Positions 27,743-30,505 of a stretch of 64,000 nucleotides of DNA are shown here, in pieces. The position numbers and the translations under genes are program-made. Each line of letters begins with the position of its first letter. Positions within the stretch are counted from its first letter, which is position 1. The stretch lies in the NCBI RefSeq assembly GCF_988243305.1, contig NZ_OZ547136.1. One strand, given 5' to 3'. The notes beneath the pieces are model-generated. The model was not told the DNA's origin. It was given only the letters and a program-made list of their open reading frames with translations, and ran no database searches.

Positions 27743-27963
27743 ACCCGCAAACCACACTTCCCTTTAAAACGCGTAACATACATTGCCTGCGTTTAACTTT
27801 CTTTGAACTCTTGCAGAAAAATGAGAATTCGTGAGTACGATCACTCAAAATCGCCTGGCAAAAATAAAATCACCCTATAGATGTACAAAAAACGGGCAAA
27901 ACTACCTGGTTCGCAAAACTGCGTCTAAAGTTAAACCGGGACCTCGCGAGCAAGGGTGAGACG

Positions 27964-28695
27964 ATGGCGCTTTACACAATTGGTGAAGTGGCGTTGCTTT
28001 GTGATATTAACCCTGTCACGTTACGCGCGTGGCAGAGGCGTTACGGATTGCTGAAACCGCAACGGACAGACGGCGGTCATCGGCTGTTCAATGATGCCGA
28101 TATTGACCGGATCCGCGAGATCAAACGCTGGATCGACAACGGCGTGCAGGTCAGCAAAGTTAAAATGCTGCTCAGTAATGAAAATGTTGATGTGCAGAAC
28201 GGCTGGCGCGATCAGCAAGAAACATTACTGACTTACCTGCAAAGCGGCAATCTGCATAGCCTGCGAACGTGGATCAAAGAGCGCGGTCAGGATTACCCCG
28301 CCCAGACACTCACCACGCATCTGTTTATTCCTCTGCGCCGACGACTTCAGTGCCAACAACCGACCCTCCAGGCGCTGCTGGCGATCCTCGACGGCGTACT
28401 GATCAACTACATCGCCATTTGCCTGGCTTCGGCACGTAAAAAACAGGGTAAAGATGCGCTGGTGGTTGGCTGGAATATTCACGATACCACCCGTCTGTGG
28501 CTGGAGGGCTGGATTGCCAGTCAACAAGGATGGCGCATTGATGTCCTCGCCCACTCGCTCAATCAACTACGCCCTGAACTGTTCGAAGGCCGTACATTGC
28601 TGGTGTGGTGCGGTGAAAATCGAACCTCCGCCCAACAGCAGCAACTCACCAGTTGGCAGGAACAAGGCCATGATATTTTCCCACTCGGCATTTAA
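27964..28695 (+). CDS. mlrA: MerR-family transcriptional regulator (243 aa), regulator of curli/csgD
   Basis: N-terminal MerR HTH (YTIGEVALLCDINPVTLRAWQRRYGL); length matches MlrA. Confidence 0.9.
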   Translation: MALYTIGEVALLCDINPVTLRAWQRRYGLLKPQRTDGGHRLFNDADIDRIREIKRWIDNGVQVSKVKMLLSNENVDVQNGWRDQQETLLTYLQSGNLHSLRTWIKERGQDYPAQTLTTHLFIPLRRRLQCQQPTLQALLAILDGVLINYIAICLASARKKQGKDALVVGWNIHDTTRLWLEGWIASQQGWRIDVLAHSLNQLRPELFEGRTLLVWCGENRTSAQQQQLTSWQEQGHDIFPLGI

Positions 28696-28754
28696 TGATT
28701 CGTTAACAAATGCGCTTTACTGTACAATCCTTTCGTTAACATAAGGAGTGCATT

Positions 28755-28862
28755 ATGCGCATAGCTAAAATTGGGGTCATCGCCCTGTTCCTGTTTATGG
28801 CGTTAGGCGGAATTGGTGGCGTCATGCTCGCAGGTTATACCTTTATTTTGCGTGCTGGCTAA
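28755..28862 (+). CDS. yohO: Small membrane protein (35 aa): [35 protein letters not shown]
   Basis: 36-codon ORF, ATG 28755 with AAGGAG RBS; single transmembrane helix; not in the ORF track (under 60 aa). Its 3' end overlaps the 3' end of convergent yehW by 20 bp. Confidence 0.7.
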
Positions 28863-29574
28863 GCGCCTGCACCAGCCTTTCAAACAGGCGGTCTGCAATG
28901 ATCGCCGCCAGTGCCACCAGTAACGCCCCCTGGATCACATACGCGGTATTAAATCCGCTAAGCCCGATGATGATCGGCGTACCCAGCGTGCTGGCCCCTA
29001 CCGTTGAGGCGATCGTCGCCGTACCAATGTTGATAATCACCGAAGTTCGCACGCCCGCCAGAATCACCGGAGCCGCCAGCGGTAGCTCGACCTTACGCAG
29101 TCGCTGACCACGGCTCATTCCCATACCTTTCGCAACTTCTGTCACGCTGGCATCAATCGCTCCCAGCCCGGCAAGTGTCGCCTGCAGGACGGGCAGCACA
29201 CCATAAAGGATCAAGGCGATAATCGCGGGTTGCAGACCAAACCCAATCACCGGAACGGCAATCGCCAGCACCGCGACGGGCGGAAAAGTCTGTCCAACGG
29301 CGGCAATAGTTTCCACCAGTGGGCGAAATTCCGCGCCCCACGGGCGAGTAACAATAATTCCTGCACCAGTGCCAATGATCACCGCAAACAAACTCGAAAT
29401 TCCCACCAGCCAGAAATGAGCCAGTGCCAGAGCAGCAAAACTTTCTTGCTGATAAACGGGTCGTGGCAGTTGTGGGAACAAGGCAGCAAACAGCGGCTGG
29501 CTGTAAGGCAGCCAGAAAATCAGCGCCACAAACAGAGCAATGAGCCAGAACAGCGGATCGCGCAACATCTTCAT
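28843..29574 (-). CDS. yehW: ABC transporter permease (osmoprotectant uptake), 243 aa
   Basis: Polytopic membrane ORF; last gene of the osmF-yehYXW operon. Confidence 0.9.
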
Positions 29575-29578
29575 ACGT

Positions 29579-30505
29579 TTACGCCTCCACCAGCAGATCC
29601 TGAAAATGCAGCGTGCCGCAAGGCTCGCCCTGCGTGTTCACCACCGGCAGCACTTCACATCCCCGCGCGACAAACAGGGAGAGTGCATCGCGTAGCGTCA
29701 TCTCTTCTGCCAGCGCCTCACCTTCTGCCCGTTCTTCGCGACGCACGTAATCCGCCACGCTACGTAACGAAAGCAGGCGGACACCCAGTTCACTATGCCC
29801 AAAAAACTGGCGGACAAAATCATTCGCCGGACGAGTCAGCATCGTCAGCGGATTGCCCTGCTGCACCACTTCACCGTGATCCATCAACACCAGATGTTCT
29901 GCCAGCCGTAGCGCCTCATCAATATCATGAGTGACCAGCACAATAGTGCGCCCCAGCAAACGGTGAATGCGCGTCATCTCTTGTTGCAACGCGCCGCGCG
30001 TTACCGGGTCCAGCGCGCCAAAAGGTTCATCCATCAGTAAGACTTGCGGATCGGCAGCCAGTGCGCGCGCCACTCCCACACGTTGCTGCTGACCACCGGA
30101 AAGCTGATGCGGATAACGCTCACGCAAATTTGGCTCCAGCCCCAGTAGCGCCATTAATTCGTCGATACGATCGTCGATCCGCGCCCGTGACCATTTTTGT
30201 AATTGCGGCACGGTGGCAATATTTTGCGCCACGCTCCAGTGGGGAAACAGGCCAATAGATTGAATGGCATAGCCCATCCGGCGGCGCAACTCCAGCACTG
30301 GCAGCGAGCGAATTTCTTCTCCGGCAAAGCGGATCACGCCACTGTCATGCTCCACCAGGCGGTTAATCATTTTCAGAGTGGTGGATTTACCGGAGCCTGA
30401 TGTACCAATCAGCACCGAAAAACTCCCCTCCTGAAAATTGAGATTGAGATCGTTAACGGCTTTTTGTATGCCGAACAGTTTGCTGACATGGCTAAATTCA
30501 ATCAT
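29579..30505 (-). CDS. yehX: ABC transporter ATP-binding protein (308 aa)
   Basis: Walker [13 protein letters not shown] signature LSGGQQQR, Walker B LLMDEP. Confidence 0.9.

Follow-up and report, generated by a model that had tools for sequence, protein, structure and literature searches.

The best explanation is that the E. coli gene yohO is transcribed separately and encodes a single-pass inner-membrane protein of 35 aa, forms a convergent excludon with yehW, probably has a promoter of its own, and makes an mRNA whose 3′ end would arise through Rho-dependent termination and trimming. We put the probability of this reading at about 0.85. The gene, its overlap with yehW and the overlap of the two transcripts are already on record in public annotation and published datasets. 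New here are the retention of the overlap across the Enterobacteriaceae, whatever gene lies upstream, and the promoter-like block of yohO itself. All coordinates refer to the window, i.e. the whole 64,000-nt stretch of DNA that was analysed, and are collected in Table 1.

Table 1. Coordinates of features around the junction of yohO and yehW in the window
Feature	Position	Strand	Basis
mlrA, upstream neighbour in Escherichia (context; no invariant partner)	27964..28695	+	ORF list, annotation
Palindrome TTAATG-N3-CGTTAA (one mismatch in E. coli), over the mlrA stop codon	28692..28706	.	E. coli sequence; where a −35 element or operator would be expected
Two exact copies of TTCGTTAACA flanking the −10-like hexamer	28699–28708 and 28732–28741	+	E. 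coli sequence
−10-like hexamer TACAAT of the predicted yohO promoter	28723..28728	+	Conserved hexamer; alignment
yohO Shine-Dalgarno sequence AAGGAG	28743..28748	+	6 nt before ATG; GGAG-type motif at this position in almost every locus
yohO CDS, small single-pass membrane protein	28755..28862	+	ORF list, NCBIfam NF010225, RefSeq annotation, coding signature, helix prediction
yohO/yehW CDS overlap, 20 bp	28843..28862	both	Direct reading of the sequence, ORF list
yehW, permease, last gene of the osmF(yehZ)-yehY-yehX-yehW glycine betaine ABC transporter operon	28843..29574	−	ORF list, PF00528, annotation
Stem-loop GGCGGUC-UGCAAU-GAUCGCC in the yohO 3′ UTR, without U-tract	28887..28906	+	Fold, −12.5 kcal/mol
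yohO mRNA 3′ end	28911 (MG1655 2215813)	+	Term-seq, Adams et al. 2021
Rho termination region, peak	29093 (MG1655 2215995)	+	Adams et al. 2021, Supplementary file 2

yohO is a protein-coding gene of a narrow family

The DNA of the window is E. coli chromosome: the interval 28600–29000 is present at ≥95% identity in 5423 of 5426 complete E. coli genomes, and the RefSeq annotation of E. coli gives the gene order mlrA, yohO, yehW there. An earlier note on this DNA, made from the letters alone, had arrived at the names yohO and yehW, which are matched by RefSeq annotation and, for yohO, by NCBIfam model NF010225. The yehW ORF encodes 243 aa with the BPD_transp_1 domain (PF00528) of binding-protein-dependent permeases. 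YehZYXW is a low-affinity, non-osmoregulatory betaine transporter, and 'osmoprotectant transporter', the term used in the earlier note, is thus a loose label.

The yohO ORF begins with ATG and runs for 36 codons (35 aa and the stop), and the strong ribosome-binding site ascribed to it in the note is borne out by the AAGGAG motif. Its product matches NF010225 ('protein YohO', an equivalog model) from residue 1 to 35 of the 35 model positions, with 80.1 bits against a cutoff of 57. The local copy of Pfam held no model for YohO; homologues carry PF27791 (UPF0387_membrane) in the contig index. Compared with the YohO/UPF0387 family, the protein shows a full-length 80-bit match, a length in the 34–37 aa range, a single hydrophobic helix, the invariant core, and the same genomic position as in other Enterobacteriaceae. 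We found no point of difference; yohO is a real gene and here represents the type member of the family, that of E. coli.

At ∼35 aa, YohO is predicted to have one hydrophobic transmembrane helix, in line with the earlier description of a 35-aa membrane peptide. AlphaFold2 gives a single helix broken at G19 (residues 3–18 and 20–34; pLDDT 90.7). Residues 6–32 are strongly hydrophobic (Kyte-Doolittle mean of 2.17), and the only charges are R2, K5 and R33. Seven residues (G19, G22, V23, M24, L25, G27 and Y28) are invariant. A PDB search with YohO returned no match, even at E = 10. The family is very narrow, comprising 17 clusters among 1.84 billion representatives in an exhaustive search of a 50%-identity library. 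Most of these (P0002, P0003, P0005–P0008, P0010–P0013, P0016 and P0017) are frameshifted, 5′-extended or chimeric versions of the same gene, and hence the true diversity of YohO is smaller than 17 clusters. In P0017, the reading runs on into the antisense of yehW.

Coding constraint was assessed on 77 distinct CDSs. The pN/pS ratio is 0.27 in the yohO frame, versus 1.16, 2.82, 1.21, 0.43 and 2.38 in the other five, and column entropy is 18, 6.5 and 39 for codon positions 1, 2 and 3, respectively. Judged by this alignment, purifying selection is confined to the annotated yohO frame. It could be argued that the small ORF arose by chance and is no gene, as a 4-kb stretch here contains 63 ORFs of ≥20 aa, this one among them, and the local Pfam copy lacks a model for it. 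That reading is excluded by the equivalog match together with the frame-specific selection, by the conservation of the start codon and ribosome-binding site, and by protein and ribosome-profiling detection already published. YohO has been detected by top-down MS (PMC12529367), and ribo-seq coverage of yohO has been described in a preprint that calls YohO a known membrane small protein (bioRxiv 10.1101/2020.05.05.079178); a passage of the same preprint credits the membrane association to Hemm 2008. The earlier note would have been overturned had the small ORF shown no transcript or translation; Term-seq, Ribo-seq and top-down MS data in the literature already exclude this outcome.

Conservation of the yohO/yehW overlap

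As the earlier note had reported, yohO runs 20 bp into the end of yehW, which is convergent to it. The shared segment places the last six codons of yohO and its stop opposite the yehW stop and its last five to six codons, in a phase that sets third codon positions of either gene opposite second positions of the other.

We compared 80 yehW loci, each from a different species of the Enterobacteriaceae and their relatives. A YohO homologue convergent to yehW is found in 79 of the 80, and the gene is intact in 78 of these 79, with an ATG start, 34–37 codons and a GGAG-type ribosome-binding site. Every intact copy overlaps yehW tail to tail (78/78), by 26 bp (n = 42), 20 bp (n = 33), 17 bp (n = 2) or 14 bp (n = 1). 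Two loci stand apart. In Enterobacterales bacterium CwR94 (L075), yehW is present and yohO is not detectable. In Citrobacter amalonaticus AUH_CA_2023_1 (L007:3216–3330), the yohO frame is disrupted, representing either a pseudogene or an assembly error.

A 20-bp overlap is also seen in six more divergent loci (L082–L087), all of which adjoin an OpuAC-BPD-ABC-BPD operon. Upstream of the two most divergent variants, P0014 and P0015, stands metG together with an HTH regulator, or else a TonB-dependent receptor. On the other side there is again an OpuAC-permease-ATPase-permease operon, whose final permease gene shares 20 bp with yohO.

The other flank of yohO is far less uniform. The gap between mlrA and yohO is usually 51–79 bp, but several loci of Citrobacter and Klebsiella have 109–529 bp. 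No mlrA flanks yohO in L036, L050, L055 and L078, and in Pantoea it lies 1.8 kb (1790 nt) away; counting all loci in which it is absent or displaced, the list comprises L036, L050, L055, L078, L080 and L082–L087. In Klebsiella spallanzanii (L050:3326–3714), and also in L036, L055 and L078, yohO sits next to a 567-aa ORF, with mlrA missing. By its size and position, this ORF is taken to be a putative btsS. The promoter-like block of yohO is intact in these loci, which points to loss of mlrA in several lineages. As far as gene order goes, the constant partner of yohO is the yehZYXW operon, not mlrA.

A promoter-like block precedes yohO

A −10-like hexamer lies 31–37 nt before the ATG in 77 of the 78 intact loci, as TATAAT (48), TACAAT (17), TATACT (10) or TAGAAT (2), and a block of ∼62 nt upstream of yohO travels with the gene. 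In E. coli, the predicted start site is near 28735 (MG1655 ∼2215637). The −35 region is weak, and a promoter scan called none at this site. We infer that transcription of yohO starts from a conserved promoter belonging to the gene itself and placed immediately behind the mlrA stop codon. SMRT-Cappable-seq supplements contain no yohO entry, and because no experimental yohO start site was found, read-through from mlrA could contribute to yohO RNA.

A palindrome, TTAATG-N3-CATTAA, is perfect in 35 of 78 loci and has five of six arm matches in another 20 of 78. The two TTCGTTAACA copies are 33 nt apart in E. coli. Together, the palindrome and the TTCGTTAACA pair (28692–28741) look like putative operator sites for a regulator. 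The recognition site of MlrA is TGTACA-N12-TGTACA. We considered an MlrA box here, because the TTAACA-N12-TGTACAAT that E. coli has just after mlrA is similar to this site, and rejected it: other genera have CGTATAAT, and an 8-nt deletion in Citrobacter alters the spacing.

Could yohO instead be only the distal cistron of an mlrA–yohO transcript, such that the antisense partner of yehW is mlrA mRNA? The two genes are on the same strand with a gap of 59 nt, and no terminator was detected between them. However, the conserved, near-consensus −10 block stays with yohO where mlrA is missing or lies 109–1790 nt away, and in divergent genomes metG, an HTH regulator or a TonB receptor takes the upstream position. 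We therefore regard the distal-cistron arrangement as highly unlikely. Because the block is conserved and the upstream gene variable, the best reading takes yohO for an independent unit joined to yehZYXW rather than for a tail of mlrA. By speaking of an 'mlrA-side transcript', the earlier note put the emphasis in the wrong place, since yohO has its own promoter-like block and stays with yehW without mlrA.

Several observations concern the regulatory surroundings of the locus. mlrA is RpoS-dependent. osmF belongs to the core RpoS regulon (PMC10654073). Genomic SELEX for minor sigma factors gave a peak assigned to the interval 'yohO > yehW < yehX' (type D, intensity 4.0, older MG1655 coordinate 2214150; PMC5493296); the peak falls inside yehW and could mark an antisense or internal promoter. 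For Shigella flexneri, an RNA-seq table gives −2.96 for yohO, apparently in an anaerobic versus aerobic comparison (PMC4229854), a hint at oxygen-dependent expression. Within mlrA, a terminator-like hairpin with a T-run (27968–28002, + strand) lies 5–37 nt into the CDS, and coincides with a Term-seq 3′ end classed as 'internal mlrA' (MG1655 2214904, window 28002; PMC7815308). This end could reflect premature termination or attenuation of the mRNA for this curli regulator. Finally, a 17-nt inverted repeat with 88% complementarity (28657–28673/28777–28793) relates the 3′ end of mlrA to yohO codons 8–13, and is probably a chance match.

The yohO transcript ends inside yehW

Each mRNA must contain its own stop codon, and so the transcripts of yohO and yehW are required to overlap; moreover, the 20-bp CDS overlap leaves no intergenic space for a terminator. 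Published data agree with the earlier note on this point. Term-seq places a 3′ end on the + strand at MG1655 2215813, classed as 'primary yohO, antisense yehW' (Adams et al. 2021, PMC7815308, Supplementary file 1), which is 49 nt beyond the yohO stop and, in antisense, 69 nt inside the yehW CDS, and the pair is listed by ExcludonFinder (see below). We checked the coordinate convention of the Term-seq table on the aspU and aspV tRNA ends, which put the 3′ end at base 51 of the 61-nt strings. In this three-tab file, the yohO end occurs three times, with read counts of 861 and 1115 in two of the rows (PMC7815308). The same data list no 3′ end for yehZYXW mRNA.

The yohO mRNA ends 5 nt past a stem-loop (arms 28887–28893/28900–28906; tail GCCAG). 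This stem-loop is embedded, in antisense, in the yehW codons for Ala-Ile..Asp-Arg. As its arms correspond to the Ala-Ile and Asp-Arg codons, the pairing partly follows from the protein sequence. Even so, pairing was 5.48 of 7 pairs in this set of mutually related sequences and 4.63 ± 0.12 under a synonymous-codon null, and 0 of 2000 resamples came as high. All seven pairs of the hairpin form only in Escherichia, in Salmonella and in some Citrobacter and Enterobacter; elsewhere there are three to five. We rejected it as a family-wide element on these grounds, namely its completeness in some genera only and the relatedness of the sequences, and treat it as a feature that appears limited to certain lineages. 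It follows that the exact mechanism forming the 3′ end may be lineage-specific.

No intrinsic terminator (GC-rich hairpin and U-tract) was found past either stop codon (from 28862 on the + strand, from 28843 on the − strand), and an Rfam scan of 27800–29700 gave only a noise match. Opposite yehW, on its antisense strand, Adams et al. mapped a region of Rho termination (Rho score 5.6, P = 9e-16; PMC7815308, Supplementary file 2). This bicyclomycin-sensitive region peaks ∼180 nt beyond the 3′ end of yohO mRNA. On the + strand, positions 28863–29182 are rich in C and poor in G, the C/G ratio being 1.0–2.0 overall and 1.3–2.0 once a single 80-nt window is set aside.

Dar and Sorek (2018, PMC6061677) described Rho-dependent transcripts in which diffuse termination is followed by a precise steady-state end, positioned just past a protective stem-loop that lacks a U-tract. 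The yohO transcript resembles these in both respects, having its end 5 nt past a stable U-less stem-loop and C-rich, bicyclomycin-sensitive RNA downstream. It differs in that the stem-loop lies within the CDS of the opposing gene and is kept in some genera only. We infer that RNA polymerase coming from yohO would run on, in antisense, into yehW; Rho would stop the polymerase on the untranslated C-rich RNA; and the transcript would then be trimmed back to the stem-loop.

Another arrangement between convergent genes is the bidirectional intrinsic terminator, in which one sequence element ends both transcription units. The yohO/yehW junction departs from this, with no intergenic space, no hairpin flanked by U and A tracts and no terminator call on the minus strand, and with termination of yohO that would be Rho-dependent. 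A structure at 28703–28768 that might occlude the ribosome-binding site, or act as a terminator hairpin on the minus strand, was also considered and was rejected as a conserved feature. Its fold in E. coli has a z-score of only −1.6, and RNAalifold returned no consensus on either strand from 40 diverse sequences.

Possible consequences of antisense transcription

Full-length yehZYXW mRNA is complementary to at least 69 nt of yohO mRNA, and the pair therefore constitutes a convergent excludon. The genes are adjacent, on opposite strands and tail to tail, and their transcripts overlap. ExcludonFinder counts yohO-yehW among 165 convergent excludons present in ≥50% of 58 MG1655 RNA-seq samples (2025, PMC12288877). 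The pair thus shares with this class the convergent neighbours and overlapping transcripts, and is itself on the published list; it differs in that the CDSs themselves overlap, beyond the 3′ UTRs. In the same study, excludon pairs as a class showed less single-cell co-expression and higher synteny, and validation by p19 dsRNA capture failed for convergent excludons in general, the assay being uninformative for such pairs (PMC12288877).

From the arrangement of the genes, antisense interference at yohO/yehW is a possibility. In its strongest form, yohO and yehZYXW would antagonise each other's expression, as polymerases collide and/or RNase III cuts a duplex 69 bp or more in length. If so, high transcription of yohO would mean less transporter mRNA, and vice versa. 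Membership in the published E. coli excludome, the class-level trends in co-expression and synteny, and the fixation of the overlap across ∼80 species all lean this way. Set against them are the failure of dsRNA capture to validate convergent pairs, the low Term-seq counts for yohO (861–1115) and the fact that only the extreme 3′ end of a ∼3.7-kb operon mRNA is touched. On balance, we hold mutual antagonism to be doubtful.

The arrangement may also be neutral, an inherited accident in which a small gene arose in, or drifted into, the 3′ region of yehW, with no regulatory or functional meaning. We think this quite conceivable, at somewhat less than even odds. Both C-terminal tails vary between genera, and on this reading the overlap would be tolerated for that reason: YohO ends in RAG, RGGVG, HAG or HNA, and the overlap measures 14, 17, 20 or 26 bp. 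RNAalifold found no conserved structure over the yohO start and promoter block, the 3′ hairpin is kept in some lineages only, and many convergent overlaps are regarded in the literature as transcriptional noise. What a neutral origin accommodates poorly is that yohO and yehW are separated in none of ∼84 loci, whereas the mlrA-yohO spacer took insertions of up to ∼470 bp (gap range 51–529 bp). We regard the overlap as an ancient feature that has become fixed in the yehZYXW-yohO module, and any effect it has at the RNA level as modest and condition-dependent.

Possible partnership of YohO with the transporter

Several small membrane proteins, such as KdpF, AcrZ, MgtS and CydX, bind transporters or other membrane complexes. 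YohO is like them in having fewer than 50 aa, one transmembrane helix and a conserved motif of small residues, and in its tight genomic association with a transporter operon; as for co-occurrence, the association extends over 79 of 80 yehW loci plus the six divergent ones. The difference is that yohO is convergent to yehZYXW rather than inside it, and its link to YehZYXW comes from gene position.

One might accordingly ask whether the YehZYXW ABC transporter includes YohO as a subunit, accessory or regulatory, with the genomic attachment reflecting a shared function. yohO always sits at the yehW end, whatever the upstream gene. The family is narrow (17 clusters among 1.84 billion representatives), and the invariant residues G19, G22, V23, M24, L25, G27 and Y28 are more specific than membrane anchoring needs. 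Yet yohO lies outside the operon and is convergent to it, the PDB contains no YohO structure, and one yehW locus (L075) has no yohO. A subunit role is, in our estimate, unlikely. Partnership at the protein level, functional antagonism and neutral overlap are not mutually exclusive readings.

A bolder proposal, more unlikely still, joins two of these. In it, yohO and yehZYXW would form one conserved five-gene module of the Enterobacteriaceae, with YohO as a lineage-specific accessory protein or regulator of the Yeh glycine betaine transporter and the CDS overlap coupling expression through antisense RNA. Were this true, a small protein and its target would be set against each other by antisense transcription.

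Implications

Returning to yohO as a separately transcribed membrane-protein gene in a convergent excludon with yehW, two uses follow. The attachment of yohO to yehZYXW offers a testable lead to the function of YohO, which may be a partner or an antagonist of the Yeh transporter. In addition, yohO/yehW provides a well-conserved example in which the excludon could be tested by simple promoter mutations.
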